Part shown: positions 5,163 to 40,478 of the stretch, piece after piece
How positions within the stretch are numbered: the first letter of the stretch is position 1
Layout: every line of letters starts with the position of its first letter
Origin: Kagunavirus LM08P1
Strand: one strand, 5' to 3'
Length of the DNA stretch: 42,973 nucleotides
Sequence record: OZ035812.1
Position numbers and translations under genes: made by a program
Notes under the pieces: model-generated
Seen by the model: only the letters and a program-made list of their open reading frames with translations
The model's database searches: none
Told to the model about the DNA's origin: nothing

Positions 5163-5191
5163 TTGACTTTTCACTAAAAATGTGCTAAGCT
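5163..5191 (+). promoter_or_regulatory. sigma70-like promoter (TTGACT-N17-TAAGCT, extended -10 TG) driving structured RNA element A
   Basis: -35 TTGACT 5163..5168, 17-nt spacer, -10 TAAGCT 5186..5191 with TG two nt upstream; same hexamers and spacing at 36032..36060 while spacer sequence differs. Confidence 0.55.
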
Positions 5192-5197
5192 CCACCT

Positions 5198-5397
5198 GAG
5201 CTTGTGAAGTATGAACAAGCGACCGCGGCGCGGGCAGGTAACGGAGCGGGACGTAAGTCCTGAGTGTAGTTACGCTGACGCGTTCGGAAGGGCCATACTC
5301 TATTGCTTGTGTAAAAAGTAACTGGTTTACTGAGATTACGCCGTTTCTATGTTTAAATGATAAGGACTAGCGCCCCGCTTTATGGCGGGGCTTTACT
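5198..5397 (+). ncRNA. candidate structured noncoding RNA / leader element, copy A (unidentified family)
   Basis: About 200 nt between promoter and terminator hairpin (5371..5391 + T-run); shares conserved blocks with copy B (36067..36300) with hairpin-preserving substitutions; no reading frame conserved between copies. Confidence 0.5.
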
Positions 5398-7763: not shown

Positions 7764-7790
7764 AGAGGGACTTCGGTCCCTCTTTTCATT
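7764..7790 (+). terminator. intrinsic terminator
   Basis: GAGGGAC-TTCG-GTCCCTC hairpin followed by TTTTCATTT, 17 nt after capsid stop. Confidence 0.65.
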
Positions 7791-14162: not shown

Positions 14163-14186
14163 AATTATTTCCTCAGTAAGTTACAG

Positions 14187-14220
14187 GTGAATAGTACCCT
14201 ATTATATTGGGGTGTGCAAG
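14187..14220 (-). promoter_or_regulatory. sigma70-like promoter with palindromic operator-like core (family 1), minus-directed
   Basis: Minus strand reads TTGCAC-N17-TACTAT with TATAATAGGG in spacer; 31 of 33 positions identical to plus-strand element at 36341..36373. Confidence 0.55.
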
Positions 14221-14326
14221 TAGTGTGCTAGAATAAGTTTGCGCCTAGTGTCGCACACGAAAAGCGGGTGGTTCCCGTCTGGCGCGTCAACCTTAACCTG
14301 TAACCTCTTAACCAAAGGACTAAAGA

Positions 14327-19321: not shown

Positions 19322-19683
19322 ATATTAATTCTTATACTGGGTTGCCGTACGATTTTCGCCGTCGTAATTGCTGGCACCACGTGCGTAACGTTCGTACCGA
19401 CGCTGGTCTTTTTACGCCAGAGTTTAACGTCGCTTCACCAACACAGATTAACGACGCCTTCGAAGAAGGCCATAAAGACACTAAAGGCCTCGTACGCGTA
19501 GAAACTCCGCAAAACTTCGATGCCGTGTTGATGGCGACACGGCACAGAAACCGTGTAATCTGGCACGCTGGAGTATACTATGACGGTATGGTAAGCCATT
19601 GCGAGCTGGCGAGTCGCCAGGTACGGTTAGACCGACTGGAAGACTTGCGCGAAACTTATGCGGAGATAGAATTTTGGCGCTGA
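19318..19683 (+). CDS. tail assembly protein with NlpC/P60-like cysteine peptidase motif (lambda K-like, putative)
   Basis: 121 aa; candidate Cys-His pair (NCWHHV ... VIWHAGVYY) and position before J-like protein; from memory. Confidence 0.45.
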   Translation: MNINSYTGLPYDFRRRNCWHHVRNVRTDAGLFTPEFNVASPTQINDAFEEGHKDTKGLVRVETPQNFDAVLMATRHRNRVIWHAGVYYDGMVSHCELASRQVRLDRLEDLRETYAEIEFWR

Positions 19684-22226: not shown

Positions 22227-22238
22227 AGAGGACTCTAT

Positions 22239-24203: not shown

Positions 24204-24205
24204 AA

Positions 24206-24232
24206 CTAAGGCCCCATTTGGGGCCTTTTCTC
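24206..24232. terminator. bidirectional intrinsic terminator
   Basis: AAGGCCCC-ATTT-GGGGCCTT hairpin with T-run; lies between convergent tail (+) and replication (-) blocks. Confidence 0.65.
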
Positions 24233-24369
24233 TACTCTTCTGATAACTTCTCAAGTACAAACGCCAGTTGTGCGTTAGCGGCATCTCTTTGCTGCCGTAG
24301 GCGTAGAACCTCCTCCTCAAGTTCCTTGATACGTTTTTGCAATGCCGGAATCGGGGCTATGATGTTCAT
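24232..24369 (-). CDS. small hypothetical protein (45 aa, predicted helical)
   Basis: Found manually; ATG 24369 overlaps helicase stop (ATGA) with AGGAG upstream; sequence MNIIAPIPALQKRIKELEEEVLRLRQQ... Confidence 0.3.
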   Translation of the reverse strand: MNIIAPIPALQKRIKELEEEVLRLRQQRDAANAQLAFVLEKLSEE

Positions 24370-25790
24370 TTCTTACTCCTTCTCTTCATATAATTAAGTA
24401 GTTCATCCTGTACAGACCTTTTCTCGTCTGTACGCGCGGCGACAACTTCATCAAGAGTATCTCTGGCTATTATTTGATAAATGAATACAGACCGTTTGTA
24501 CCCAGACTGCATCTGCCTTACTGGGCCTATACGCTCGATAACCTGCAAATAATGTTCCAGGTTCCATCCCTGACTCATAAATGCCATGTGATGCCCGCCG
24601 TGTTGTAGCGACAGCCCGTGACCCGCGGAGGCTGGGTGTATCAGGAGCATAGGTATCTCCCCTCGGTTCCACGCTTCCATCTGCTTATTACCCTTCGCAC
24701 CTTTGGCAAACGCCTGTGCCTGCGGGAATCGCTTAAGGATGCGCTCCAGTTCGTGCTTGAACTGATAGGCTACCAGCAACGGTGCGCCCTGTAATTCCTC
24801 AACAATCGACTCCAGCGCATCCAGTTTCGTGTCGTGCACTTTCTCCCAGTCTTTCGTTGCCTCACCGTCTGGCCCCGACACATATACGGCACCGGAGGCA
24901 ATCTGCAAACACTTTGACGTCTTTGCCGCCGCGTTAGCCGCTTCAACTTCTCCGCTCTCCAGTTCCGCGAATAACTTCTCCTCCATATCGATGTACGCCT
25001 GACGCGCCTTCTTCGGCAGGTCGATTTCAACCGGAACAATAATCGGCGCTTCACAACCAAACCACTCGGCGGGGTCGATAGTCAGGCTGATGTCTTTCAT
25101 CTTCTGATGAATCTCATTATCAGCGCCAGGGCGCGCATGATACTCCCGCGCCATCGCCGACTTACCTTTCTGTACCGAGTTAAACCAGCGGTCGGTGAAT
25201 GCGGTGTATGATGAGCCAAGGCGCTCGCCTGCGTCGATAAACCAGTTCTGGCCCCACAAGTCTTTGAGGCCGTTTGGCGACGGTGTACCAGTCAGGTTGA
25301 TAAAACGCTTAACCTTTCCGAACGCCACTTTACTTAGCGCCTTCGCCCTCTTGCTACCGCCAGACCGGCTACGGAATGATTTAAGCTTCGTGCTTTCATC
25401 GGCAACAATAACAGTAAAAGGCCAGTCGTCTTTGCCATAGTAGTCAATCAGCCACTCGATAACTTCGTAGTTTGTACACACCACGTTAGCGTCAGACTCC
25501 AGCGCCGCGATGCGGCGCTTCTCTGAACCTGTCGCATCGACGACGCGCAGACAAGGGAATTGCCATTTCTCTTGCTCTGCGGGCCACGTACCTGATGCAA
25601 CGCGCAACGGGGCGAGGATTAACACGCGGTCCCCTTCGGCAAGCTGCCCATTACGGAACAGGCGGTTTAAAACCCACATAGTAGAGGAGGTTTTACCCCC
25701 TCCCATGCCGCACCAGATATTACAGCGCGGATGCTGTAGCATGAACGAAGTCATGAGCTTCTGGTATTCGCGCCTTTGAAACTTACTCAT
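24366..25790 (-). CDS. ATP-dependent helicase (SF2, DEAD/SNF2-like)
   Basis: 474 aa; Walker A-like CGMGGGKTSS, DExx-like VIVADEST; C-terminal helicase-like region. Confidence 0.7.
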   Translation of the reverse strand: MSKFQRREYQKLMTSFMLQHPRCNIWCGMGGGKTSSTMWVLNRLFRNGQLAEGDRVLILAPLRVASGTWPAEQEKWQFPCLRVVDATGSEKRRIAALESDANVVCTNYEVIEWLIDYYGKDDWPFTVIVADESTKLKSFRSRSGGSKRAKALSKVAFGKVKRFINLTGTPSPNGLKDLWGQNWFIDAGERLGSSYTAFTDRWFNSVQKGKSAMAREYHARPGADNEIHQKMKDISLTIDPAEWFGCEAPIIVPVEIDLPKKARQAYIDMEEKLFAELESGEVEAANAAAKTSKCLQIASGAVYVSGPDGEATKDWEKVHDTKLDALESIVEELQGAPLLVAYQFKHELERILKRFPQAQAFAKGAKGNKQMEAWNRGEIPMLLIHPASAGHGLSLQHGGHHMAFMSQGWNLEHYLQVIERIGPVRQMQSGYKRSVFIYQIIARDTLDEVVAARTDEKRSVQDELLNYMKRRSKK

Positions 25791-25978
25791 TTCGCCACCA
25801 GAACTAACTCTTTACGCCCGAACGCCGTAACGTTACCAGTTACATCTTCGATAACCAGTTTACCGTTCGACTCTACGTACACCGTATCAACGGCAACAGG
25901 GCGACGGGTCTTAACATTGAAAATCATGTCGCCCGGTACGATGTCACGTGCTGGTTTGCGGTCGTATTCGTGTTTCAT
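25787..25978 (-). CDS. hypothetical protein
   Basis: 63 aa; RBS AAGGAA; stop overlaps helicase start (ATGA). Confidence 0.45.
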   Translation of the reverse strand: MKHEYDRKPARDIVPGDMIFNVKTRRPVAVDTVYVESNGKLVIEDVTGNVTAFGRKELVLVAK

Positions 25979-26017
25979 TTCTCAATTCCTTATAGTTAAG
26001 GCCCCGAAGGGCCTGTA

Positions 26018-26272
26018 TTAGTTAGATAATTCGGCTTGAACTTGCTTAATAAGTTCTCCAGCCGTTGTGAAGTCTACGGACAGCCGTTTAGCTACGTCTT
26101 CCGCAAGCACTTTGCGGCCAACCGACCCGAAACCCAGGATACGGTTTACTTCCGAAACCTTCATATACCATGAGTAATTAACTGATGCCCCTGTGTACTT
26201 ACAGATTCGAACAGATGAATCGATTGAACCCATAATCATGGTATTTACTGACAGTTGAAGTTCGATAGCCAT
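26018..26272 (-). CDS. hypothetical protein
   Basis: 84 aa; RBS AAGGAA; preceded by strong minus-strand promoter 26307..26335. Confidence 0.5.
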   Translation of the reverse strand: MAIELQLSVNTMIMGSIDSSVRICKYTGASVNYSWYMKVSEVNRILGFGSVGRKVLAEDVAKRLSVDFTTAGELIKQVQAELSN

Positions 26273-26273
26273 T

Positions 26274-26588
26274 TTATAATTCCTTATATTGTTGGGGTAT
26301 GTGCTTACTATAATAGTCTGCTATTAGGGTGTCAATCTGTTTTATCGAACCAACGACAAAAACATTCGCGCCACGTTTACGCATCCGCTCGTGCTCGCGT
26401 AACTGGTGTGGGTCTGGCTTCGTGCTTTCATCTTTCTTAACCTCAACGAACCAGATGATGCCGCCGGGGAGGATTACCAACAGGTCGGGCGCTCCGTTTC
26501 GGCCCTCATACACCATCTTACGAACGAGGCCCCCCAGGGCCTCGAATCGGTCTTTCGCGTATTTCTGTACGCGGCCCTCTTTAGTCAT
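26274..26588 (-). CDS. VRR-NUC domain nuclease
   Basis: ORF frame to 26603 (TTG); ATG 26588 in ATGA overlap with upstream small ORF; PD-(D/E)xK-type motif ...PDLLVIL...VEVKK... recalled as VRR-NUC. Confidence 0.6.
   Translation of the reverse strand: MTKEGRVQKYAKDRFEALGGLVRKMVYEGRNGAPDLLVILPGGIIWFVEVKKDESTKPDPHQLREHERMRKRGANVFVVGSIKQIDTLIADYYSKHIPQQYKEL
26307..26335 (-). promoter_or_regulatory. sigma70 promoter (TTGACA-N17-TATAGT) with palindromic core (family 2), minus-directed
   Basis: Minus strand reads TTGACA ccctaatagcagactat TATAGT; lies inside 3' end of VRR-NUC coding sequence, about 28 nt upstream of start of 26018..26272. Confidence 0.55.
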
Positions 26589-26737
26589 GGGCGTAGAACC
26601 CAAGTAAGGAAAGCCCCTCCTAGAACGGCAACACCGACAAACTTAAAGAACAGGCCATAACAGAACATCGTGGCTATTCCCGCCCCGAGTAACAGTGCAA
26701 GCATGGTTACTATTGTCCAAAATACAAACATTGTCAT
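26585..26737 (-). CDS. small hydrophobic protein (50 aa)
   Basis: Manual ORF; ATG 26737 with RBS GAGGGGTG; stop overlaps VRR-NUC ATG (ATGA); two hydrophobic stretches. Confidence 0.35.
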   Translation of the reverse strand: MTMFVFWTIVTMLALLLGAGIATMFCYGLFFKFVGVAVLGGAFLTWVLRP

Positions 26738-26819
26738 AATACGCACCCCTCACGTTTCGTGTGCTCAATCCCGCAGCGCGGACAGATTCGACAGTCTTCT
26801 TCATAGAACCAGTAGATTT

Positions 26820-26951
26820 TCATTCCAGCACCCACAGATAAATTGCGATGAACATACCTAATACGGCTACAATCATGCCGTATTGGCCCTCGTGACAGTA
26901 GACACCGGCGGCAAATCCCGCCAGTACTGCGATAATCAGTTTACTTAGCAT
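26820..26951 (-). CDS. small hydrophobic protein (43 aa)
   Basis: Manual ORF; ATG 26951 overlapping polymerase stop; sequence MLSKLIIAVLAGFAAGVYCHEGQYGMIVAVLGMFIAIYLWVLE. Confidence 0.3.
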   Translation of the reverse strand: MLSKLIIAVLAGFAAGVYCHEGQYGMIVAVLGMFIAIYLWVLE

Positions 26952-29214
26952 AACGGTACACCTCTTCCCCAGCCCATGTTAACGGGAACCCTTCGGCCCA
27001 CTCAGGTAATGAGCATAGCAGGTCACCCATCTCTTTAACCGTGTACTCTGGCGTGTCTGGCGTTTCGGCAACACATTCGTCATGTACGTGGAGTACAATT
27101 GGGTAGCCCGCCGCCTCGACCGTCAGGAGTCCGTTAACCAGTAAATCACGGCACAACGCCTGGATGATGTTTTCACACAATTTTCCGCCGTGGGTGTACA
27201 AAGTTGTCCACTGGCGGGTGGTCTGATTTTCACCCTGATACTTAATGCGGACGTTAGTAGTAACGCGCCCATCCTCGTCAGTCTCTTTAGTGACGCTTAA
27301 GCCTATGCCAGGGTAGGACATGATGCGCCCAGACGGCAGTTCCACGCACAACCACCAACCCGGAACCGGATTACCGTGGTTGTCTTTTTCTTTGGTACGC
27401 CAGATGCGGATGGCTCTGTCGCCGTTAAGGCGTACTCGGGCCCCTGCCCAAAACTCTCGTCCCGGATTTCTGATGGCGGCTATCACCGAATCCTTAAGGT
27501 CATTCCAGAATTTCACTGTTTCCGGATGGGCTTCCCGCCACATGCGCTTAATGGCGTCACAGGTGCGCCAGACTTCTTTAGGCAGCACATAAGAGGCCCG
27601 TTCATCTTTTTTACCAGGCTTTGGCGGGCGTTTAGCCTCCTGAATTCTGGCCCATTCGTAGCCACGGGCGGTAGCCGCCCAAATGTGGTCGGGGAACGTG
27701 CCCCGCATTGTCTCTGTCATTTTAAAGAGGTCCAGCCCGTAAGTTTTAGCCATAGTCATAAAAGCCCCTACGCCCCCCTCGTAGCCGAGGCCGAGTTCGC
27801 AACATTTCCCGACCTGACGTAGGTCCTTACGGGTGGCTTTTAGTTCTACGGGATCCATGCCAAACATCTTGCCCGCGGTGGCGCAATAAATATCAATCCC
27901 TGCGCGGAAGGTCTCAAGCGCGGATGTCTCCCCCGCGGTCCAGGCCAACCCGCGCCCTTCTACGTTTGAGTAGTCGGCAACGAGCAACTTATTACCTTTT
28001 TCCGGGATGATGCAACTGCGAACAGTCGAGGCTGTCAGCTTGGACACATCGAAACGGCGATGCGCCCGGCCCTTTAAAAGCAAATTGATGCCAAATGATA
28101 GCGGGTTAAGCCTGCGGTTCCAGTCTTCGTCGGACTCCCACGGCTGGCGCACAAGTTTCTTTTCCTCGTTAGTCGGGTCGTCGTGGTAGTACCCGCGCGA
28201 CAGGTTCTGCGGTTGGAACCCTTTACCCGCAAATCGTAAAGTGCGCTTTGCCCCACCGTACTGGATGCAACCGCGGCGGCGGCCGTCTTTGGACCGTCCT
28301 AGCAGGAGCGGTTTGTATTTTGTCGACGCCGTGGAGGCCGCGCCGAGGCGCATCTCAATGATTGTGCGCGCATCGTCAGGTAAGTCGTCGTCCTCTAGCA
28401 AACCTTCGAGCGTTGCTTTCTGTGCATTATAGATATTGTAGGCCGGTGCCAGCTCCCGAAGGATTGGCAGGAAGTCTTTACCCGTTAGCTTGCCGCCAAA
28501 TTTAGCCCTGGCCTCGTTTTTTAGCTCTTGCTTGTGGCGTTCAACTGCTGCTACCGCCGCCTCAGCAAGAGCCGCATCAACAAAGAAGCCTCGGTCGTTG
28601 ATTAACTGGTCAAGTTCAAGTACACGGTCCTCGAAATCGGAGTTACCCCAACGTGGCAGCTTATGGAAGACTTCACGCATCGCTGTGATGTCGCTCACGG
28701 CATACTTGATGAACAGGGCCCACTCGTCAGGGTGAGTTTCTGCGGTGTAGCGGCGGATTTTGTAGTTCTTCGGCGTCGGTTTAGAGAAACGCTTAATCAG
28801 CGCCTTGCCGCGTTTATCTTTTGCATTGTCGGCGGATACGCCCAGCACTTCGCACAATGCGTCAAGTGACCCCGGCAGCGCGTGACGAAACGCCCAAATC
28901 ATCGTATCAATGGTGTTGCTTACCGGAATATCAAAGTCCCAGCAGTGCTTCATGACGAGCCTGTCGAACATTGAGCCGTTGTGCCACACCATCTTAATAC
29001 GACTGTTTGGCTTAACCAGGCGGCGCAAGGCGCGGTGCAAATCGCCCGGCATGTCGCTGCCGTCGGTGCAGTCCCATACCTGCACAGGCTCGTCGTCAAA
29101 AGCATATGCGCAGATGAGCACTTCGGTAGTTGGGTGTTCTGCGTAAGCGTAGGAACCGACTTTCTTCAAATCGGCTTCGGAGAAGGTTTCAAAGTCTAAG
29201 AACAGATAACTCAT
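26941..29214 (-). CDS. DNA polymerase I-type (family A) with N-terminal 3'-5' exonuclease domain
   Basis: 757 aa; N-terminal DnaQ-like Exo I motif FLDFETFS; polymerase motif A-like DYSNVEGR and motif C-like VLHVHDE. Confidence 0.9.
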   Translation of the reverse strand: MSYLFLDFETFSEADLKKVGSYAYAEHPTTEVLICAYAFDDEPVQVWDCTDGSDMPGDLHRALRRLVKPNSRIKMVWHNGSMFDRLVMKHCWDFDIPVSNTIDTMIWAFRHALPGSLDALCEVLGVSADNAKDKRGKALIKRFSKPTPKNYKIRRYTAETHPDEWALFIKYAVSDITAMREVFHKLPRWGNSDFEDRVLELDQLINDRGFFVDAALAEAAVAAVERHKQELKNEARAKFGGKLTGKDFLPILRELAPAYNIYNAQKATLEGLLEDDDLPDDARTIIEMRLGAASTASTKYKPLLLGRSKDGRRRGCIQYGGAKRTLRFAGKGFQPQNLSRGYYHDDPTNEEKKLVRQPWESDEDWNRRLNPLSFGINLLLKGRAHRRFDVSKLTASTVRSCIIPEKGNKLLVADYSNVEGRGLAWTAGETSALETFRAGIDIYCATAGKMFGMDPVELKATRKDLRQVGKCCELGLGYEGGVGAFMTMAKTYGLDLFKMTETMRGTFPDHIWAATARGYEWARIQEAKRPPKPGKKDERASYVLPKEVWRTCDAIKRMWREAHPETVKFWNDLKDSVIAAIRNPGREFWAGARVRLNGDRAIRIWRTKEKDNHGNPVPGWWLCVELPSGRIMSYPGIGLSVTKETDEDGRVTTNVRIKYQGENQTTRQWTTLYTHGGKLCENIIQALCRDLLVNGLLTVEAAGYPIVLHVHDECVAETPDTPEYTVKEMGDLLCSLPEWAEGFPLTWAGEEVYRYAK

Positions 29215-29228
29215 TATTTTGACCCTTA

Positions 29229-29252
29229 GTAAAAAGGCCCAATAAAGGGCCT
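29229..29252 (-). terminator. intrinsic terminator / attenuator hairpin between DUF2815-like gene and polymerase
   Basis: On minus strand AGGCCC-TTTATT-GGGCCT followed by TTTTT, upstream of polymerase RBS. Confidence 0.4.
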
Positions 29253-29272
29253 TAATTAAACAGATTCAGATA

Positions 29273-29905
29273 TTAACCACGGCGACGACGTTCGCGGCGC
29301 GGTGCTTCATCTTCTTCGTCGTCTTCCAGGTCGTCGGTGCTCGCTACTACACTGGAGCCGCCGAAGCGTTTACCTTCGCCCATATACTTGATGCCGAGGA
29401 TGGTAGCGCACAGGTTTTTCCAATCTTTGTGCCACCATAATTCTACAGATACGTTTGCGATACATCCGCTATATACCTGCTCGCCTTCTATTTCTTTCCC
29501 GTCGATGTTGAAATCAGGCTCGGTTTGTTTTTCACCTTTAGCCGATGTCATAATCACCGGTTGGCGGTTGTTTGTAGCGCGGAAATACAGACCTTCTTCA
29601 AAATCCTCAATCGGATTATCTCGCATTGCCAGGTCACGGACGCAGCATTTGTCTGCGTGGTGGTCTACACCGTAGTTGGCCTTCATCCATTTCTCGGCAG
29701 CAGCGGCCCCGATTGCATCTGTTACAACTTCCAACGCGGTGTCGTAAAGCGCATCAATTTGAGGATGGTCAGGCTGCATAAGAACAGTAACCTGATACTT
29801 ACCCTTAATCAGTTTACCGGTTTTCTTGTCCTCAGAGTCGGCGGCACGTTCAAATACGTTAACCCAGGCGGTGTTTACTTTACGCAGATTCAGTTTAATA
29901 CCCAT
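29273..29905 (-). CDS. DUF2815-like protein (putative ssDNA-binding protein)
   Basis: 210 aa; acidic then basic C-terminal tail; synteny with DUF2800-like nuclease and family A polymerase, which is recalled as a common phage replication module. Confidence 0.5.
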   Translation of the reverse strand: MGIKLNLRKVNTAWVNVFERAADSEDKKTGKLIKGKYQVTVLMQPDHPQIDALYDTALEVVTDAIGAAAAEKWMKANYGVDHHADKCCVRDLAMRDNPIEDFEEGLYFRATNNRQPVIMTSAKGEKQTEPDFNIDGKEIEGEQVYSGCIANVSVELWWHKDWKNLCATILGIKYMGEGKRFGGSSVVASTDDLEDDEEDEAPRRERRRRG

Positions 29906-29958
29906 CTTGATTTCTCGCTTTTAAGTTTACTCCGGGAACTGCCCGGCCAGTGATTAGA

Positions 29959-29988
29959 AATATAATAGCTAACTATTCAGGTGTCAAC
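29959..29988 (-). promoter_or_regulatory. sigma70 promoter (TTGACA-N17-TATATT) with palindromic core (family 2), minus-directed
   Basis: Minus strand reads TTGACA cctgaatagttagctat TATATT; core TGAATAG-N4-CTATT; upstream of start 29905. Confidence 0.55.
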
Positions 29989-30235
29989 CCTTCCAGCCAG
30001 TTATTTTCTCAACTATCTCAATATACTTGTTGGGCCATTTCATGTTGTTTATGAATCGAAGCGCCTGTGTCTTCCACGATTTATCGCTCAGGATAGCTTC
30101 GATGTCGCGAGTTTGTGTTATACATACCGTAATACACATTAAGATAAATGTTGGTAGCGTTAGTGGCATCATAAGAACCCAGAAAACAATACACGCTATA
30201 AGCCCACCAAAAATCCTGAACGTTTTACGAATCAT
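29984..30235 (-). CDS. small membrane protein (two predicted TM helices)
   Basis: ORF frame to 30265 (GTG); ATG 30235 with AGGAGG 7 nt upstream and ATGA overlap with upstream nuclease gene. Confidence 0.5.
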   Translation of the reverse strand: MIRKTFRIFGGLIACIVFWVLMMPLTLPTFILMCITVCITQTRDIEAILSDKSWKTQALRFINNMKWPNKYIEIVEKITGWKG

Positions 30236-31473
30236 TCCAAATCCTCCTCTGTTACCTGATTCCACTCAGGACGTTTGTCGTCTGCCGTTGCGACGCATGG
30301 CGTGCCAGGCTTACGGGTAATAAAGTCTTTCAGTTCATCTTCCGACACAACTTTAACCGCTTCGGTCGGCGTCATGAGCACTTCTTTAGTCAGCTTGTCG
30401 CCGTAGAGTTCTGCCACTTTCTCCGCGTCTTTCCACGCGCGATTACCCGGGCGACCCTCAACCAGCTTGTACCCCGGAACTTTCTTACCGGAATGCAACG
30501 CGGCGGCCATAGCTTTCTCAACCTTGTCGATGTGCTGGCGCAATAACGGCAACTTCTCATACTCAGCTACGAGTTGCTCAGGGGTCAGTTCCAGTGCAAA
30601 GTCGTCTTCCAGTTCTTCCGCCAGTGCAGAGTTAACGGTTTTTGTACGCGCGGCGCACTGTTCAGAGAACCGGCACCACTGACACCCATCTACCGACGGT
30701 CTGAAGTCCGACGCTTTCAGGTTCTTCTTTCCACGGAAATAGGCGTCAAGCGCTAACAATGCACGTTTCTGCGCGAACTTAGCGAACAGTTCCAGACCTT
30801 CAACCGAGATGTCCCACTCGGACGCACCGCCAGCATACGGCTGGAAGATAACAAGACGAACAACTGTGATGTTATAACGTCTCCTGAGTCGGCGGTAAAC
30901 ACCGAGAGCGTAAAGCATTAGCTGCTTGTTTTCTTTCGCTTCGACACGATGCCGTCCCGTTTTAAGGTCGCCAATAATGAGCATGTGCTCGTCAGTGTTT
31001 GCCAGTTCCTGAACGGCAACAAGGTCGGCGGTGCCGAACGTCTCAATGCCTTCGTAGCCCGGATGCAATACCTCAGTAAGATTGACGCGCCTTTCCAGCT
31101 TGGCGTAAGTCGCTACATCGATAATCGCTTTGCAGTAATCGGTGTACTTGCGCACCTGCTCAATCATATCCGTCGTAATCAGTACCGCACCTTTCATCGG
31201 GCTTATTAGCGCCTTAATCTGGCCTTTACCTTCATCCAGCACGTAAGCACCGACTTCACGCTCTAATGGCAACGCAGTACCGCGTATATAGGCGTTGAGA
31301 TGTACCTCAGCTATGGTGTGACACGCGGTCCCTATAACGGCGGATTTACCCGAAGTGTTAGGAATATCTTTTTCACAGGCCAGTGACGCCGCGCATGACA
31401 GCCACTTTTTAGCGCCTGACGGTGACAGTAAGGCGTGTACATCATTATTGCCGCCTCGTTCTTTTAGTTTCAT
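30232..31473 (-). CDS. PD-(D/E)XK Cas4-like exonuclease (DUF2800-like) with C-terminal Cys cluster
   Basis: ORF frame to 31494; ATG 31473 with RBS GGGTGGGAG; C-terminal CQWCRFSEQC cysteine cluster typical of Cas4/AddB-type Fe-S nucleases; synteny with DUF2815-like gene and polymerase. Confidence 0.6.
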   Translation of the reverse strand: MKLKERGGNNDVHALLSPSGAKKWLSCAASLACEKDIPNTSGKSAVIGTACHTIAEVHLNAYIRGTALPLEREVGAYVLDEGKGQIKALISPMKGAVLITTDMIEQVRKYTDYCKAIIDVATYAKLERRVNLTEVLHPGYEGIETFGTADLVAVQELANTDEHMLIIGDLKTGRHRVEAKENKQLMLYALGVYRRLRRRYNITVVRLVIFQPYAGGASEWDISVEGLELFAKFAQKRALLALDAYFRGKKNLKASDFRPSVDGCQWCRFSEQCAARTKTVNSALAEELEDDFALELTPEQLVAEYEKLPLLRQHIDKVEKAMAAALHSGKKVPGYKLVEGRPGNRAWKDAEKVAELYGDKLTKEVLMTPTEAVKVVSEDELKDFITRKPGTPCVATADDKRPEWNQVTEEDLE

Positions 31474-31767
31474 GCTCTTAAACTCCCACCCCATTTAACT
31501 TTACGCGTTTTGCGCTTGTAGGCGCACGTGTCACCGCTACGGTTGAATATAATCAGCCAAGTCGAGTTGCTTACTCGAAAAGGCTGGTGACGTTTAATAA
31601 AGATAAGTCGCGCTTTACGGTTCGTCATTCTTCTACCCTCTCCACCCAAGCATCGTCAAAAGTATCAAAATCAAGATTATCGTATGCTGCGTATGCGTCA
31701 TCTACATCCAGGTATCGGCTGTGCTCTGTAGCCACGCCGTTAGTGTAAGTAAATATCGCCCAGTAAA

Positions 31768-32040
31768 TCATGCTCTGCTCTCCCACTGGTCAATTAAATG
31801 TCTTGTCTTATAGTCACAGTGCATGGCCCAGCTGTACATCGACTCAAAGACATAAAAGTCAGGTTTGGCGAATGTCGTGCGCTTAATCTGTGACACGTGT
31901 CGGCCTATATCTTTAGGCCGAGGTACTTTGCCTAAGTACGCCATCTCTTCCATCTGGTGCGCACCGGACGGCGCACGTAACAGCCATAACACCTCTGTGT
32001 TGTCCCGCCTGTCTACGGCTCGGTAGAGTTGGTAAATCAT
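31768..32040 (-). CDS. hypothetical protein
   Basis: ORF frame to 32067 (GTG); ATG 32040 with RBS GAGGGTAAA, ATGA overlap with upstream gene. Confidence 0.45.
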   Translation of the reverse strand: MIYQLYRAVDRRDNTEVLWLLRAPSGAHQMEEMAYLGKVPRPKDIGRHVSQIKRTTFAKPDFYVFESMYSWAMHCDYKTRHLIDQWESRA

Positions 32041-32240
32041 TTCTTTACCCTCACAGAATCCATCCACGCGAAAACGTCATCCATAGAAAAATCACCGTCG
32101 AAAACTTTTTGTGTTTTATCCGACTTTTGTACATACGTAGGGCGTTTATTATCTACCGCGTGGAAGCATACGAAGTTATCCGTTTCTTCTATAACCCGCC
32201 CTGAAATCATAAGACCACTTTTCTTAGCTAAAATAGCCAT
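32037..32240 (-). CDS. hypothetical protein
   Basis: 67 aa; RBS GAGGGTCGG. Confidence 0.45.
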   Translation of the reverse strand: MAILAKKSGLMISGRVIEETDNFVCFHAVDNKRPTYVQKSDKTQKVFDGDFSMDDVFAWMDSVRVKK

Positions 32241-32295
32241 ATTTCCGACCCTCAGTATGGTGCCCTCACGTATGAGGGCACCATAAGTTAAGTAG

Positions 32296-32784
32296 TTATT
32301 CTTCTTCGAAATACTTGTTCTTGATTGCCGTCAGGCGTTCCAGGTATTCGGCCAGGTCTTCGTCTTTAATCGCGGCAATCTTCATCTTCTTACCGGTGAA
32401 CTCTTCCAGCAGTTCATCGGAATCATCGCACGCGGCATCGCTCGGACCTTCATTAATCGCATCGTCGATAGCCTGAATCTGATCACGAAGAGACTGGTAA
32501 TCGACTTCTTCTTTCTCTTCTTGCGGCTCTGGCGTTGGCTCCTCTACTTTAGGTTTACGCGGCTTGCGTTTCGGCTTCTCTTCTTCTGCCGGTTTAGTGT
32601 CGACGAGGTCTTCACCTTCTACCGTGATTTCTTTTGTCGCTTCTTTCGCAACAACATCACGAACACTATCTGCGATGTTTGCATCTGCCTTAAGTTCATA
32701 CACAGGTTTTTTCGCGCTATTCGCAGCAATCAGTTCATGCGCAACTACGAAACGTTCCAGTAATTTTAAGAATTGGTCTAACAT
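32296..32784 (-). CDS. highly acidic hypothetical protein (first gene of minus-strand early operon)
   Basis: 162 aa, very high Asp/Glu content with a central KPKRKPRKPK basic patch; RBS GAGGAGAG; immediately downstream of promoter 32816..32845. Confidence 0.55.
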   Translation of the reverse strand: MLDQFLKLLERFVVAHELIAANSAKKPVYELKADANIADSVRDVVAKEATKEITVEGEDLVDTKPAEEEKPKRKPRKPKVEEPTPEPQEEKEEVDYQSLRDQIQAIDDAINEGPSDAACDDSDELLEEFTGKKMKIAAIKDEDLAEYLERLTAIKNKYFEEE

Positions 32785-32815
32785 TTGTTTCTCTCCTCTC
32801 GTTTGGTATGGGCTA

Positions 32816-32845
32816 ACTATAATAGCGAACTATTCATGTTGTCAA
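32816..32845 (-). promoter_or_regulatory. sigma70 promoter (TTGACA-N18-TATAGT) with palindromic core (family 2), minus-directed
   Basis: Minus strand reads TTGACA acatgaatagttcgctat TATAGT; core TGAATAG-N4-CTATT; divergent from HTH regulator gene. Confidence 0.55.
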
Positions 32846-32861
32846 TGGGCTTTCCTAAAAT

Positions 32862-32890
32862 AATTAATATGGTACTATTCACATATAAAC
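32862..32890 (+). promoter_or_regulatory. candidate plus-directed promoter/operator upstream of HTH regulator gene
   Basis: TAATATGG-TACTATTCA resembles family-1 core (TACTAT -10) but -35 is weak; 20 nt upstream of RBS AAGGAG of 32910..33125. Confidence 0.35.
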
Positions 32891-32909
32891 TAACTAAGGA
32901 GTAACTGAC

Positions 32910-33125
32910 ATGCAACCATCTGAACTAGGCATCCGCGTAGAACAACGCCGCAAAGAACTAGGCATCTCTCAGCGCCGTCTGGCGGTTTTGGCTGGCGTTT
33001 CCCAGGGCGCGATTAACCAGCTGGCACTCGGCGTAACTCAGGACGTCCGCCCGGCGACGCTGTTTAAACTGGCGGAAGTGCTGGAAGTAGACGCCAAGTG
33101 GCTGGCGTTCGGTGAAGGGGCTTAA
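32910..33125 (+). CDS. XRE-family helix-turn-helix transcriptional regulator (Cro/CI-like)
   Basis: 71 aa; classic HTH segment ISQRRLAVLAGVSQGAINQLALG; lone plus-strand gene between two minus-strand operons. Confidence 0.8.
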   Translation: MQPSELGIRVEQRRKELGISQRRLAVLAGVSQGAINQLALGVTQDVRPATLFKLAEVLEVDAKWLAFGEGA

Positions 33126-33142: not shown

Positions 33143-35410
33143 CTATTCCAAATCCTCCGCTGTCACCACCAGCATTTCATTCGGTTCGTATATTGTCTTC
33201 GGAATCTTGTTATCCGTTATCCTGGTGTTAAGCCGGTAGCGGCCAGGTATTATCTGATTGTTTTCGTCAGTCCCCGGAACAAGATACCCGGCCTCAACCA
33301 TTTTCTTAATCTTCCCGCGTTCTATGGCTTCTTTGGAGTTAAACGCCTTTGCGTTGGGGTCTGACTGAGCGAGCTTATTCGCTGCGGCCACCGTGATACC
33401 TTCATTGCCGTTGTAGGTTCCTTCTGCCAGTTCAAACGCTGCCAGTATCGTGGCTTCCGAACTGTTGACGGCGTTCTCTACGGTTTTACGTACGTTTTCT
33501 TTACCTTCCTTTGTCAGCCCTTCTTCCCGCTCTTTCTCCTCGTCAGTTTTGAACGGCTCGAAGCCCCACGGCATCAGTACAAGCGCCTTGTGCGGTTCAG
33601 GCAGGTCGAGGTTTACGATTGTGCCGTATTCCTCTGTGCTACCCAGGAACTCAACCGCGCGATACTCTTTCGGCGGCGGGGCTTCACGGAACTGTACTGA
33701 CTCCAACACCATACCAACCGTCTTCTGTTGAGGCCCGTGCTTAAATTTAGAGTGGTATACGTTTATCTGGCGGTCGGTAGCGCGTTCGATTGTCAGCTCC
33801 ACGTCGACGCCCGCATACAGCGCCCCACTGCCACGGGCCTTCTTTCCACCCTTCGGCGTATGGTGGACAACGCCTACCGCAGCTTTAGTCGCATCACGTA
33901 CTTCTTTCAGGATGGCAATGACTTTACCCATGCCGATTGCCGTCGATGAACTGTTCTCGTCGAACTTATCAATCGTCAGGGCCAGCGTCTGGTTAAGGGT
34001 GTCGAATGCGACCATGCCAATTGGCTCGTCACCCGCAGTTTCACGCATTAACTTAATCAGGTTTTTCAGTTTTCCGACTTCGCCCATGTCGATAACATGT
34101 ACATAATCTTTACCTTCCTCGCCATATTTAGCCGCGAGTGCATCTATACGTGTGCGTGTAGCTGCGCCTCCCTCACCGTCGATATAGAAATGGTGGCAAC
34201 GCTGGGTATCCGCCCCGGCAAACCGGTATCCGGCGGCGCTCAGGTACATCATCCCCAGCGTATAGAACGATTTGTACGTGCCGGATTCCCCAACAATATC
34301 CCAGATACAATCTGACGGCATGTACCCCTCAACGACGAAATCAGCCTTTACCGGTTCCAGTAACTCGTCCTCCTCTGAGCCATCATCGTCTTCCAGGTCG
34401 TCGAGGCTGCATGAGACAGATTCACGCGCGCCCCAGCCGATAGCCTCGGCCACTTCACTGAACGGCAACCCGGTCGCATCACACGCGTATTTCCACACCT
34501 CTTTCGGTGACATGCCTTCGGTTGCCGTAATGTCGGTGTCGTGAATCATGGTTACGTTCGGCGCTTCGTAGCCCTCGCGCGGGAAGCACAGCAGGAAGTC
34601 ATCCGGGCGCGGCGTCGGGTCACTGTAGTTCTCCGCGTGTTCTGGTGTGGCGGGCATCTTAAGGCCGCGCGGCGTCATGATGCCACCGTACTCAAACGCC
34701 AGTGCTTCAAACGCATCCGTAAACGCGGTGCGTAGTTCTTCCGGTATCTGGTAACCCGATGCACTGCTAACGTCAACGGCTGGTACACCTTCCAGTAACT
34801 CTTCCGGGTCAATCAGGTCGTTACGGCGCGACCAGATAACGGTGGAGCCAACCGGCGGCAGGTACATCGGTTGCGACAGAGTGAACCCGCTGCGGTCAGC
34901 GCCCATACCTTTGAAGAAGTGCTCCAGCAATCCGTGACGAACGCGGATGATGTCACCACCTTCAACCGGACGCCCCAGCGGCATGACGACGCGAAAGCGC
35001 GGGGACTCATCGGCATGTGATGCTGTGGTGTAGAGGCACATCGCCTGGCGGCTGCGTTTAACCAGTTGCACCGCTTCCTGATACTCTTCCGTCGTTGCGC
35101 TGTCGAAGTCCAGATACGCCAGTGACGATTTGCTTACAGACGCGTCACAGCGATAGAAGAAGCCTTTACGCGCTTGCTTAAAGTCACCGGTTTCCGGGTC
35201 TTTTACGGTGCTGTGCGTCGAGTCGCACGCGGCAGTGATATAGCCCGGTGCGGTCTTCGGATTAATTCCGTCTCGAACGGCATCGAGCGGCTGGAGTAGC
35301 TCTTTCAGGTCGCCCAGTGTCGCCGTGTGTGTTGTTCTGACGTTTATATCCTTTTTCTCCGCCCGCGCGTTGCGACGTGACCACGAGTAGGATAAAATTA
35401 CATCGGACAT
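33143..35410 (-). CDS. primase / replicative helicase-type protein (N-terminal primase-like region plus RecA-like ATPase domain)
   Basis: 755 aa; Walker A-like GESGTYKS within RecA/DnaB-like region; large N-terminal domain of primase-polymerase size; RBS AAGGAAA. Domain identities from memory. Confidence 0.6.
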   Translation of the reverse strand: MSDVILSYSWSRRNARAEKKDINVRTTHTATLGDLKELLQPLDAVRDGINPKTAPGYITAACDSTHSTVKDPETGDFKQARKGFFYRCDASVSKSSLAYLDFDSATTEEYQEAVQLVKRSRQAMCLYTTASHADESPRFRVVMPLGRPVEGGDIIRVRHGLLEHFFKGMGADRSGFTLSQPMYLPPVGSTVIWSRRNDLIDPEELLEGVPAVDVSSASGYQIPEELRTAFTDAFEALAFEYGGIMTPRGLKMPATPEHAENYSDPTPRPDDFLLCFPREGYEAPNVTMIHDTDITATEGMSPKEVWKYACDATGLPFSEVAEAIGWGARESVSCSLDDLEDDDGSEEDELLEPVKADFVVEGYMPSDCIWDIVGESGTYKSFYTLGMMYLSAAGYRFAGADTQRCHHFYIDGEGGAATRTRIDALAAKYGEEGKDYVHVIDMGEVGKLKNLIKLMRETAGDEPIGMVAFDTLNQTLALTIDKFDENSSSTAIGMGKVIAILKEVRDATKAAVGVVHHTPKGGKKARGSGALYAGVDVELTIERATDRQINVYHSKFKHGPQQKTVGMVLESVQFREAPPPKEYRAVEFLGSTEEYGTIVNLDLPEPHKALVLMPWGFEPFKTDEEKEREEGLTKEGKENVRKTVENAVNSSEATILAAFELAEGTYNGNEGITVAAANKLAQSDPNAKAFNSKEAIERGKIKKMVEAGYLVPGTDENNQIIPGRYRLNTRITDNKIPKTIYEPNEMLVVTAEDLE

Positions 35411-35468: not shown

Positions 35469-35759
35469 TTATCTATTAGCCAGACATTCCATCAAATGCG
35501 CGTACTTACGATAATAATCTACGACAATCTCATCACCGAAATACTGATAAACGTACGCTAAGTGGTCAGAGACATCGATGGAAGCCGACATTGTGCTGAG
35601 TCTTCGGAGACTAATCAACTGTAATTCTTCTGTAACGCAAAACGGTGAATAAGAGTCCAGCTTACAAGAAACGTTAAAGCACAACGCATATTCGCCTTGC
35701 ACTAAATAAACCATATAAGCACTGTCATTTTCTTTATCGTGGAAAATTACACCTTTCAT
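35469..35759 (-). CDS. hypothetical protein
   Basis: 96 aa; ATGA overlap with upstream HTH gene. Confidence 0.45.
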   Translation of the reverse strand: MKGVIFHDKENDSAYMVYLVQGEYALCFNVSCKLDSYSPFCVTEELQLISLRRLSTMSASIDVSDHLAYVYQYFGDEIVVDYYRKYAHLMECLANR

Positions 35760-35926
35760 TTCACGTTCTCCTTAATCCACGCCTCAACTTTATTACGGTC
35801 AAATGTACCAGGTAAACGGCGACCCATTACTTTAACGCTGCAATCAGGAAACTTTCCACTCTTAATCCAGTTATTGATTGTCTGGCGGGTGACTCCGATT
35901 AATTCTGCAACTTCATTGATAGTCAT
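35756..35926 (-). CDS. small HTH DNA-binding protein (AlpA/excisionase-like fold, putative transcription regulator)
   Basis: ORF frame to 36016; ATG 35926 with RBS AGGAGA; HTH segment INEVAELIGVTRQTINNWIKSG. Confidence 0.6.
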   Translation of the reverse strand: MTINEVAELIGVTRQTINNWIKSGKFPDCSVKVMGRRLPGTFDRNKVEAWIKENVK

Positions 35927-35955
35927 TTCGCGCTCTCCTGTGTAAGATGTATCGA

Positions 35956-35984
35956 AGTATAAGGCGGTAACTTTGTAAAAGCAA
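35956..35984 (-). promoter_or_regulatory. candidate sigma70 promoter (TTGCTT-N17-TATACT), minus-directed
   Basis: Read on minus strand upstream of HTH gene start 35926. Confidence 0.4.
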
Positions 35985-36031
35985 CCAAAACTGAACACAA
36001 AGTTACTAAGATACAAAAGATGCTACTGGTA

Positions 36032-36060
36032 TTGACTTTTACTTAAAAATATGCTAAGCT
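36032..36060 (+). promoter_or_regulatory. sigma70-like promoter (TTGACT-N17-TAAGCT, extended -10 TG) driving structured RNA element B
   Basis: Hexamers identical to 5163..5191 with same spacing but diverged spacer. Confidence 0.55.
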
Positions 36061-36066
36061 TCACTG

Positions 36067-36300
36067 AGCTTGTGAGATATCGCAAGCGACCGCGGAGCGG
36101 CAGGGAACGCAACGCGTGCCATTAGGCACTTGAGTGTAGTTCCGCTGGCGCTTTCGGAAGGGCCAAAGTCTATTGTTAATCCCGCCTAAATACCCAAGTC
36201 ACTGATAATTAAAAGTTTCTATAGTTGCCGTAAGCAAGGTGGAGAGTACTTCACTCCGCTGGGGTGGGCTAACGCCCACCCACTGCGTTGCGTACTCTTT
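36067..36300 (+). ncRNA. candidate structured noncoding RNA / leader element, copy B (unidentified family)
   Basis: Shares conserved sequence blocks with copy A; compensatory hairpin differences; ends in long hairpin (36242..36296) followed by CTTTT; no conserved ORF. Confidence 0.5.
36242..36300 (+). terminator. terminator-like long hairpin closing RNA element B
   Basis: GAGAGTAC...GTGGGC-TAAC-GCCCAC...GTACTCT followed by TTTTAAG. Confidence 0.45.
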
Positions 36301-36340
36301 TAAGAAACGAAAGAATCACAACGGCAACGTAACTTTTCTC

Positions 36341-36373
36341 TTGCACACCCCAACATAATAGGATACTATTCAC
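36341..36373 (+). promoter_or_regulatory. sigma70-like promoter with palindromic operator-like core (family 1), plus-directed
   Basis: TTGCAC-N17-TACTAT with CATAATAGG in spacer; 22 nt upstream of RBS GAGGAGTGAGGG of 36395. Confidence 0.55.
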
Positions 36374-36394
36374 TTATAGAAACGAGACAGAGGA

Positions 36395-36592
36395 GTGAGG
36401 GTTATGTTTAAACGTGGTCAGTTGGTTAAAGCTGTAAATAGCAATTATTTCATTGTTGAAAGCGAGTCTGCAGTTTTTCCGGGGGCTTATAGGGTAAGTT
36501 TTCTCGGGGAAAGATTAGGAGCAATAACCTGGTTCCGTGGAGATGAGCTAACACTCATCGGCAACAATTTTAAATTCAAAGGGGCGAAGTGA
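36395..36592 (+). CDS. hypothetical early protein
   Basis: 65 aa; strong RBS; first gene after promoter. Confidence 0.5.
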   Translation: MRVMFKRGQLVKAVNSNYFIVESESAVFPGAYRVSFLGERLGAITWFRGDELTLIGNNFKFKGAK

Positions 36593-37464: not shown

Positions 37465-37598
37465 TGTTCAATAGTTTGGTATTTTACTGAGTGACTTACG
37501 CTGCTACACAGCAGCGTACAACTTTAGATTAGTGTCGTCAAAAAGCGACACTTCCACCAAACGAAACAATAGGAGCGACTATTGCAGGAGACGCAACA

Positions 37599-37769
37599 AT
37601 GAAACTGAATGACATCGTAACCTGGACTGGTAGAAACGGAGAAAAGCGATTCGGGCTTATTGTTGCGTCAGACGGCAACAAGTACCGTGTTATGCGATGG
37701 CGTCAGTGGGCACGACGCCCGAGGTACTACTGGATTCGTGGCGAACGATTATCTTTAAAACACCAATAA
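37599..37769 (+). CDS. small hypothetical protein (56 aa, basic)
   Basis: Manual ORF; RBS CAGGAG 9 nt upstream of ATG 37599. Confidence 0.4.
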   Translation: MKLNDIVTWTGRNGEKRFGLIVASDGNKYRVMRWRQWARRPRYYWIRGERLSLKHQ

Positions 37770-40327: not shown

Positions 40328-40356
40328 TTGACACCTAAGACTAATCCGACGATACT
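40328..40356 (+). promoter_or_regulatory. candidate sigma70 promoter (TTGACA-N17-GATACT)
   Basis: Perfect -35 and plausible -10, located between two terminators. Confidence 0.45.
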
Positions 40357-40362
40357 TAAATC

Positions 40363-40428
40363 ACCTCCTGTTCCATCCCTCTGCTCTCCAGTTTTATCCC
40401 GGCCCTGACCCAGCCGGGATTTTTTTTA
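40363..40428 (+). ncRNA. candidate short RNA (about 65 nt) with pyrimidine-rich CCUCC segment
   Basis: Bounded by promoter 40328..40356 and terminator hairpin CCCGGC...GCCGGG plus T8 (40398..40428); no ORF. Confidence 0.35.
40398..40428 (+). terminator. intrinsic terminator
   Basis: CCCGGC-CCTGACCCA-GCCGGG hairpin followed by ATTTTTTTT. Confidence 0.65.
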
Positions 40429-40449: not shown

Positions 40450-40478
40450 TTGACTATTACCATCGACCCTATTATATT
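40450..40478 (+). promoter_or_regulatory. candidate sigma70 promoter (TTGACT-N17-TATATT) containing CCCTATTATAT core
   Basis: Upstream of gene starting 40512; shares CCCTATTATATT with family-1 elements. Confidence 0.45.

Follow-up and report, generated by a model that had tools for sequence, protein, structure and literature searches.

A structured RNA present in two copies in a Kagunavirus genome appears to form a new RNA family, with a proposed role as a transcription leader

The put RNA of bacteriophage HK022 acts in cis without protein factors: it binds the zinc-binding domain of the beta-prime subunit of RNA polymerase and suppresses pausing and termination. Lambda Q works via a DNA site and a sigma-dependent pause, and the 6S RNA of lambda needs no conserved fold. 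HK022 has two copies of put, each located behind an early promoter, and putL starts at the 5' end of the transcript (PMC9378689). StxS is a short terminated transcript of a phage late promoter acting in trans (PMC7547250). These systems are compared here with a structured element found twice in a window of 42,973 bp (the whole stretch of DNA analysed), which represents a complete or nearly complete genome of a Kagunavirus, subfamily Guernseyvirinae.

According to the gene map taken from annotated relatives, morphogenesis genes are located on the plus strand at 0–24.2 kb, broken by short minus-strand cassettes, and replication genes occupy the minus strand at 24.2–36.0 kb. The plus-strand block from 36.4 kb to the end comprises many small genes of unknown function, two holin genes, endolysin, ninH, and the terminase small subunit, and, the genome being permuted, its continuation comprises the terminase large subunit and portal genes. 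Copy A of the element adjoins the spanin, scaffold, and capsid genes, being located just upstream of these. Copy B, at 36032–36301, consists of an extended -10 promoter, an RNA core of about 115 nt, an A/U-rich linker, and a composite terminator (Table 1). The two copies were matched by the covariance model (CM) with 110 and 135 bits, and CM search revealed no third copy in the window. On the minus strand upstream of copy B there are genes for an HTH protein (35756–35932) and a primase-helicase (33143–35410). Downstream lies a family-1 promoter, which is the reverse complement of repeat family D1 and is conserved in Jerseyvirus, and then the first gene of the block, starting with GTG at 36395 or ATG at 36404. 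The region 35900–36420 is 99.8% identical to Escherichia phage AV104 and Kagunavirus LM08P2. The anatomy given in the initial annotation, namely a conserved core, a different terminator-like hairpin, a family-1 promoter, and the first gene in a divergent control region, could be read from the sequence as described. Copy B does head the plus-strand block, as also claimed, but this block cannot be called early as a whole: it includes holins, endolysin, and the terminase small subunit, followed by the terminase large subunit and portal genes.

Table 1. Coordinates of copies A and B and of the features of the copy B region (positions in the window)
Feature	Position	Strand	Composition and basis
Promoter P_B	36032..36060	+	-35 TTGACT (36032-36037), 17-nt spacer, TG (36052-36053), -10 TAAGCT (36055-36060), i.e. 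TTGACT-17-TGcTAAGCT; read from sequence
Copy B core	36062-36179	+	Direct-repeat search, pairwise alignment, CM match
P1, hairpin at RNA 5' end	36068..36087	+	GCUUGUGA / UCGCAAGC; seen in single-sequence folds
P2, long irregular hairpin	36090..36157	+	Lower stem CCG.GGAGCG / CGCUUU.CGG, two invariant G-U pairs; folds and compensatory pairs
P2 5'-strand segment ACGCAACGC	36107..36115	+	Perfect complement of GCGUUGCGU (36285-36293), terminator 3' strand; possible alternative long-range helix
Conserved single-stranded tail AAGGGCCAAAGUCUAUUG	36158..36175	+	Alignments; tail of form AAGGGCC..UCUAUUG
A/U-rich linker	36176..36241	+	Block ACUGAU..UUGCCGUA, common to copy A and type II leader
Composite intrinsic terminator t_B	36242..36301	+	Outer stem AGAGUAC / GUACUCU, inner stem GGGUGGGC / GCCCACCC, then UUUU
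Family-1 promoter	36341..36369	+	TTGCAC (36341-36346), 17 nt, TACTAT (36364-36369); downstream of t_B, serves first block genes
Copy A	5163..5392	+	Promoter 5163-5191, core 5194-5309, linker, t_A 5372-5391

Promoter hexamers and their spacing were reported initially to be common to copies A and B, and this is correct: TTGACT, 17 nt, and TAAGCT, together with the TG extension, are found in both. Within the window the 29-nt promoter motif occurs only in these two copies, with 0.16 matches expected by chance, and it is unchanged across 37 distinct homologue sequences. A generic consensus scan did not call P_B, TAAGCT agreeing with TATAAT at just three of six positions; therefore, the status of P_B as a promoter rests on the TG extension and the invariance of the motif. 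The predicted start site of P_B is at about 36066–36068, and both P_B and its counterpart in copy A, P_A, are predicted to drive transcription.

The approximately 110 nt following P_B are GC-rich and give way to an A/U-rich stretch. Folding of the copy B plus strand gave P1, P2, and the terminator with an energy z-score of -3.2, and the fold of copy A matches that of copy B. All six pairs of P1 are retained in every sequence, and its sequence is nearly invariant; the stem is shorter in the SETP3 type. The internal loops of P2 (AACG.A.C and GAGUGUAG) are conserved, while the sequence of its apical hairpin is variable, with the apical loops GUAA, AUUA, GUCA, and UGUAG. The motif CGGAAGGG in the single-stranded tail is the best-conserved element over all three genera of the subfamily considered here and can still be made out in Cornellvirus.

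A total of 41 distinct core sequences was obtained from whole GenBank relatives and by pattern-scanning viral contigs and metagenomes; they sort into classes A, B1 (copy B of the window), and B2 to B5, the main difference being in P2. The architecture of P1 and P2 was reached independently by the single-sequence fold of each class. In the alignment fitted to the covariance model R1 (115 positions, 28 pairs), 93.9% of pair cells were paired versus 29%–40% with partners slid by one to three columns, and seven pairs had changes on both sides; with the SETP3-type homologues added, 93.5% of cells were paired and nine pairs showed compensatory change. Register-shifted controls overall gave 28%–40%. 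Fitting to the model biases the counts towards it; the independent single-sequence folds agree with R1. The covariation score was reached by none of 500 shuffles. One pair of the P2 lower stem is represented by C-G 14 times, U-A six times, and A-U three times, and an upper pair by A-U (10), U-A (10), and G-C (3). The lower stem also contains two neighbouring G-U pairs that never vary and would give C-A mismatches on the opposite strand; therefore, the selected structure belongs to the plus-strand transcript. Compensatory changes in homologues, which the initial annotation had named as the test of its claim that a structured RNA is under selection, are reproduced. The substitution pattern indicates that copy B is a real structured RNA with a covariation-supported fold under selection.

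A protein-coding function was rejected. The open reading frames in the region have only 22–39 codons, and the compensatory changes and G-U pairs favour an RNA. The 36-residue frame annotated over copy A in some records was not supported. A leader mini-ORF (GGAAGGG, 10 nt, UUG) was discarded as well: its length is 1–10 codons depending on the class, and the UUG is lost in the SETP3 type (CUG) and in CTH7 (UCG).

The location of copy B at the switch from minus-strand to plus-strand genes, beside the primase-helicase gene and at the minimum of the cumulative GC skew (about 35–36 kb), could be explained if it were an origin-associated transcript, either a primer or an activating RNA, and such a transcript was among the functions offered initially. 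However, the same core is present at 5.2 kb with no inflection of the skew, which tracks gene orientation anyway, and selection acts on a folded RNA rather than on a hybrid-forming one. In Cornellvirus the likely origin iterons (GGGGGAGA repeats) adjoin the primase gene, and no such RNA is found beside them. An origin function is highly improbable. Another of the functions offered, cis-acting control of termination, fits the anatomy best.

A search with the capsid protein identified about 460 Guernseyvirinae records. Copy A of the window type was found in 180 GenBank records of phages with E. coli and Salmonella hosts, in 179 of them at an identity of at least 95% over all 238 nt. Between copy A of the window and that of Jerseyvirus FSL SP-101 the element is 93%–100% identical and the adjacent coding sequence 63%–93%; no other part of the region is as conserved as the copy A unit from promoter to ribosome-binding site. 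The remaining approximately 269 records are SETP3-type Jerseyviruses carrying a diverged homologue at the copy A site. In this homologue the promoter reads TAGACT-17-TGtTACGCT, and P2 differs in its upper part but not in the lower stem, with CGGAAGGGCC likewise unchanged; the R1 score is 38–44 bits, and the terminator stem also covaries. Cornellvirus FSL SP-031 has an equivalent layout ahead of the spanin genes, with just GACCGCG and CGGAAGGGUC recognisable and an R1 score that is not significant. The order of promoter, RNA, terminator, and spanin is retained in all three genera (Kagunavirus, Jerseyvirus, and Cornellvirus) despite the divergence of the RNA sequence. Klebsiella phage VLCpiS6a, the nearest outgroup by capsid (44% identity), has no element, and its head-gene block is contiguous.

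No BLAST match was found in 5,426 complete E. coli genomes and no pattern match in 100,044 species genomes, and an origin from the host or a prophage was rejected on the basis of the genomes searched. The single match among plasmids, a 44-kb record with both copies, probably represents a Kagunavirus genome deposited under that label. The same RNA classes were recovered in three viral-contig scans and in one scan of metagenomes, almost all on contigs of 40–45 kb or fragments thereof; one further match, in a high-GC contig, is a chance one.

An A-like core at the B locus is present in only about 50 Kagunavirus records. The B locus of FSL SP-101 contains the promoter TTGACA-17-TAAGTT, a non-homologous structured RNA of about 290 nt, a terminator, and a family-1 promoter. 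This type II RNA folds into a 5' hairpin followed by a long hairpin (z = -4.5). It is the RNA that most relatives have at the B locus and was found in 363 records, including Kagunaviruses in which a single A-like element was found, such as SZH-1. The two B-locus RNA types have just one linker block in common (ACUGAU..GCCGUAG). Copy A is the ancestral member and is near-universal, and copy B is best read as the product of a lineage-specific exchange, in which a copy A paralogue took the place of the 5' domain of a leader already present. Recombination of the module is indicated by classes B4 and B5, which are natural recombinants with an A-like P2 joined to a B1-type terminator, and by one A-locus copy with a B5-type P2.

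Screening of the whole window against Rfam at gathering scores gave no match, riboswitches, C4 antisense RNA, 6S RNA, and phage pRNA included, and only chance-level matches appeared at E ≤10 for 35950–36420 and at E ≤1 for 5120–5430. In architecture and position the element resembles HK022 put: there are two paralogous copies, each behind a sigma-70 promoter at the head of a terminator-containing operon, of about 70–110 nt with two irregular stem-loops and conserved bulges, and, like putL, the element sits at the 5' end of the transcript. Homology to put was excluded by covariance models in both directions. The put model R2 was built from seven put sequences, with putL and putR located in HK022 and homologues collected; it scored 94.5 bits for putL and 45.5 bits for putR, and across the window it found nothing at either copy, the only hit being a noise match at 13222–13311 (E = 8.6). 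Conversely, R1 gave no match at E ≤10 in two HK022 segments covering 19000–33000, with putL and putR inside, and BLAST with putL found only lambdoid phages. Unlike HK022, the phage is virulent, the element has its own terminator, and P2 is far longer than either put stem. No description of the element was found in the literature on transcription, antitermination, or small RNAs of Kagunavirus, Jerseyvirus, and Guernseyvirinae, and the one time-course RNA-seq paper on a Kagunavirus reports genes only (PMC12645636). The element appears to represent a new, previously undescribed RNA family, for which the function given below is a proposal.

In both copies the element starts no more than a few nucleotides from the predicted start of its promoter, and it ends in a terminator before genes of the same strand. 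The t_A hairpin folds at -17.9 kcal/mol and has the tail UUUACUUAU (UUUA..); the t_B hairpin (36242–36298) folds at -30.6 kcal/mol and is followed by UUUUAAG. A simple terminator scan did not detect t_B, and the hairpin at this position differs in B2-type relatives, where it is followed by ACGUUCGUUUCG and makes a poor terminator. We consider t_A and t_B to be moderate terminators at which transcription is predicted to stop. Their U-tracts are short; the terminators may leak, and the downstream genes would then need no antitermination. The ribosome-binding site and start codon of the spanin (5416) are 24 nt past the end of the t_A stem (5391). No match to the sigma-70 promoter consensus was found between t_A and the spanin start codon, nor after the element's own promoter. 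Upstream of copy A, the plus-strand operon closes at a bidirectional terminator (4692–4712), which is followed by a minus-strand gene. Therefore, the spanin gene would need read-through of t_A, unless plus-strand transcription passes the upstream terminator. Other plus-strand intrinsic terminators beyond copy A are at 7763–7784, after the capsid gene, and at 12159–12178; the copy B block, via the wrap-around of the permuted genome, meets the terminators 2774–2794 and 4692–4712.

In Cornellvirus the element precedes just two spanin genes and a terminator, and the scaffold/capsid operon has its own plain promoter. Therefore, what accompanies copy A throughout is the spanin, a lysis gene, and the link between the element and the long late operon is not universal. 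The rest of the lysis cassette is carried in the copy B block.

On this basis we tentatively propose, as a reading that is possible but somewhat short of probable, that the element is a cis-acting leader governing read-through of its own and downstream terminators, similar in logic to put and nut and homologous to neither. Host sigma-70 RNA polymerase would initiate at the extended -10 promoter, and the first approximately 110 nt would fold on emergence into P1, P2, and the conserved tail. Depending on the folded core, the polymerase would then either stop at the built-in terminator or continue. In the first case a discrete RNA of about 235 nt (copy B) or about 200 nt (copy A) would be released. 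In the second case transcription from copy B would continue past its own and later intrinsic terminators into the small early genes, holins, endolysin, and terminase, and transcription from copy A into the spanin, scaffold, capsid, and tail-tube genes. Processive antitermination is the preferred version. The core could either hold on to the elongating polymerase alone, as HK022 put does, or recruit a phage or host factor, as lambda nut recruits N; a recruited factor would also supply timing.

The linker and terminator are wholly different between classes A, B1, and B2, while the core is conserved. Such a pattern would follow if the target of the core were the polymerase and not one particular terminator hairpin, and for this reason a polymerase-modifying mechanism is preferred. 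The composition of the B locus also supports the proposed leader, since it always consists of a promoter, a structured RNA, and a terminator, and the RNA, whether A-like or type II, has a similar two-hairpin build. HK022, with its two put copies, provides a precedent (PMC9378689). As copy A precedes the spanin (lysis) gene in nearly all phages of the subfamily, control of transcription read-through into lysis and late genes is the probable role of the element. Further considerations go against the proposal: the copy B genes do not depend on P_B, because a separate promoter follows copy B, and a constitutive put-like device on a strong promoter would leave a virulent phage without temporal control.

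The layout of copy A also resembles the P_R'/6S RNA/t_R'/Q module of lambda, with a sigma-70 promoter and a terminated transcript of about 200 nt just before lysis and then morphogenesis genes; for copy B the likeness lies in a block that contains holins and endolysin. In contrast to this module, the conserved thing here is an RNA fold, and there is no conserved -10-like pause element. A sigma-dependent pause was rejected, as judged by eye, because the -10-like xAxxxT hexamer in the P1 loop of copy A is missing in copy B. An RfaH ops element was rejected in the same way: GGCAGGTAAC is just loosely like GGCGGTAG and is not conserved in copy B. With lambda nut the element shares the presence of two related RNA sites near the starts of two operons and a hairpin that could recruit a factor to polymerase. 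However, the apical loops are variable, so there is no recognition loop like that of boxB, and boxA (CGCUCUUUA-like) had no match with up to one mismatch on the plus strand of 5163–5400 and 36032–36300. No antiterminator of the Q or N type was recognised by PHROGs among 19 proteins of the plus-strand block and the adjacent minus-strand HTH protein, or by Pfam among 10 proteins. A conserved protein of 56 residues (37599–37769), of unknown function, has an arginine-rich C-terminus and is predicted to form a small SH3-like barrel (pLDDT 89.6), with best matches to ribosomal L21e, Tudor, and NdhS folds at E of at least 0.02. This SH3-like, arginine-rich protein may be considered a candidate RNA partner, as a lead only.

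The main rival to the cis-acting leader is a trans-acting small RNA. According to this explanation, which we regard as doubtful though worth keeping in view, the terminated transcripts themselves are the product: abundant stable RNAs made from strong promoters upon DNA entry. Their partner would be either a host or phage protein, which they titrate or guide, or a target RNA, with which they pair, and they would serve host takeover, anti-defence, or timing. That they are located before operons would be a coincidence, and terminator leak would supply the downstream genes. Each copy is indeed a self-contained unit from promoter to terminator giving an RNA of 200–235 nt, the 5'-terminal hairpin and the 3' terminator hairpin favour stability, and two paralogues would double the dose. 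The conservation of the loops, the tail, and even the sequence of the P1 stem is what is expected of a binding surface, and an independent promoter follows copy B. StxS, likewise a short terminated leader transcript from a phage promoter, provides a precedent (PMC7547250), but it differs from the element in lacking any homology to it, and the element has no long U tail and no known target. No convincing phage target was identified, the sole complementarity of 9–10 nt being at the chance level. Small RNAs of the Hfq type have an intrinsic terminator with about seven or more U, and the U tails of three to four residues found here are short for such RNAs. The spacing of 24 nt between the t_A stem and the spanin, free of promoter matches, and retention of this arrangement across three genera are hard to call incidental. 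Finally, a non-homologous RNA is accepted at the B locus, so a positional role in cis fits better than a specific partner in trans.

RNAalifold analysis of full-length B RNAs first proposed that the 5' strand of P2 pairs with the terminator's 3' side, as would fit an attenuator or riboswitch-like switch. Here, P2 would be a sensor opened by a ligand, a protein, or slow folding, and its freed 5' strand would pair with the terminator region and block termination. In comparison with shuffles, 9-nt perfect matches occur at the corresponding P2 site in B1 (ACGCAACGC/GCGUUGCGU, P ~0.004) and in B2 (GCGAAACGA/UCGUUUCGC, P ~0.007), although about ten tests were run and these P values are only suggestive; cross-class matches reach just 4–5 nt. 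In B1 the alternative fold and the minimum-energy fold are equally stable (-89.6 versus -90.3 kcal/mol), and for full-length B2 and B3 the alternative is itself the minimum-energy fold. In class A, however, which is the universal member, the match extends over 6 nt and is not significant (P 0.19). The recombinant classes B4 and B5 also lack a significant one, and the converse pairing, in which the 3' strand of P2 would join the 5' strand of the terminator, did not reach significance. No riboswitch was matched in Rfam either. A switch of this kind is quite unlikely as the function of the element, and the long-range pairing in B1 and B2 may be an expression platform of some B leaders, end-pairing of the terminated RNA, or chance.

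P1 starts 1–3 nt from the predicted 5' end, and the messages downstream are long and polycistronic, as would suit a stabiliser or processing signal whose structured 5' end shields them from 5'-end-dependent decay. This explanation leaves the intervening terminator, the sequence conservation of the loops and tail, and the duplication unaccounted for, and we consider it very unlikely.

To return to the proposed cis-acting leader, a more far-reaching form of it can be formulated, which we hold to be rather unlikely. The element would belong to a second family of antiterminator RNAs, unrelated to put and riding host RNA polymerase. It would provide a protein-independent or single-small-protein switch for the late genes and for the split lysis cassette of Guernseyvirinae, with spanins behind copy A and holins and endolysin behind the B-locus leader. 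Its specificity types (A-like core versus type II RNA at the B locus) would be interchangeable, as nut/N and qut/Q have been exchanged among lambdoid phages.

Members of Guernseyvirinae (Kagunavirus, Jerseyvirus, and Cornellvirus) are often put forward for phage therapy and for the biocontrol of E. coli and Salmonella, and their gene regulation is essentially unstudied. Among the non-coding stretches examined, the element, present in about 450 sequenced genomes, is the best conserved; in most annotations it is left blank or covered by a spurious small ORF. If it acts in trans, it would be a highly expressed phage product with an unknown host target. These phages now grow on laboratory E. coli K-12 derivatives (bioRxiv 10.1101/2024.09.12.612763), which provides a concrete experimental handle under either reading. 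If the element does control read-through into lysis and morphogenesis genes, it would be the timing switch of these phages and only the second such RNA family after put, as well as, at about 115 nt, a part compact enough for transfer to synthetic circuits.

The leader RNA locus at the head of the plus-strand block (copy B in the window) can hold either a core like that of its paralogue, copy A, or a non-homologous "type II" leader. The latter was found in 363 phage records and had no Rfam match; in Salmonella phage FSL SP-101 its RNA had an energy z-score of -4.5. In the B2-type leaders, whose core differs from those of the other classes mainly in P2, the linker contains a (CUCA)n repeat whose sequence complements the conserved P2 motif GAGUGAG, and its copy number differs among phages (about 7 units in SCS44, 3 or 4 in fTaEco01). 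In several GenBank records, of which Snoke (6449-6559) is one, a "hypothetical protein" of 36 codons has been placed across the copy A core (window 5211-5321); this is probably a spurious call.

Coordinates of features in the window and in related phages
Feature	Position	Description
Inverted repeat GTAACTTTGT ... ACAAAGTTAC	35967-35976, 35997-36006	Perfect 10-bp arms, 20 bp apart
Non-coding gap	37465-37598	134 bp, within plus-strand block
Conserved 56-residue protein	37599-37769	Predicted SH3-like small beta-barrel (pLDDT 89.6)
Candidate small RNA	40328-40427	In 350-bp gap 3' of endolysin gene
Its promoter	40328-40356	TTGACA-17-GATACT
Its terminator	40398-40427	CCCGGC..GCCGGG, then eight U
Second promoter	40450-40478	TTGACT-17-TATATT, downstream of that terminator
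TTGCAC-17-TACTAT family member	3104-3160	Minus-strand sense
TTGCAC-17-TACTAT family member	5061-5117	Minus-strand sense
TTGCAC-17-TACTAT family member	14184-14240	Minus-strand sense
TTGCAC-17-TACTAT family member	36341-36373	Plus-strand sense
"Type II" leader	FSL SP-101 35090-35400	Promoter, ~290-nt structured RNA, terminator
(CUCA)n repeat	L037 37790-37830; L038 34775-34800	Linker of B2-type leaders
GGGGGAGA-type repeat cluster	Cornellvirus FSL SP-031 1750-1960	Immediately 3' of primase-helicase gene

The GTAACTTTGT/ACAAAGTTAC inverted repeat is located between the minus-strand HTH gene and the promoter of copy B. It shares sequence with a likely promoter on the minus strand, TTGCTT-17-TATACT, and may be an operator. 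Further downstream, the candidate small RNA has a predicted transcript of ~65 nt that is C/U-rich (ACCUCCUGUUCC..CUCUCC) and similar to an anti-Shine-Dalgarno sequence.

Within the plus-strand block, the non-coding gap contains two hairpins, GCUGCU..AGCAGC and GUGUCG..CGACAC, both lacking a U-tract after the stem. The predicted SH3-like protein has an arginine-rich C-terminus, RWRQWARRPRYYWIRGER, and could bind nucleic acid. Cornellvirus FSL SP-031 carries a comparable small ORF with an ARRPR motif (2488-2673), the likeness being judged by eye from the sequence. The GGGGGAGA-type repeats of the same phage look like origin iterons.

The TTGCAC-17-TACTAT promoters of the window form a family with a repeat unit of ~57 nt, and a palindrome, AATAG-N4-CTATT, spanning their -10 region has the appearance of an operator to which one of the HTH proteins would bind. 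Read on the other strand, the motif contains TATATT, so the sites may promote transcription in both directions. The TTGCAC-17-TACTAT promoters drive the cassettes on the minus strand as well as the first genes past copy B.
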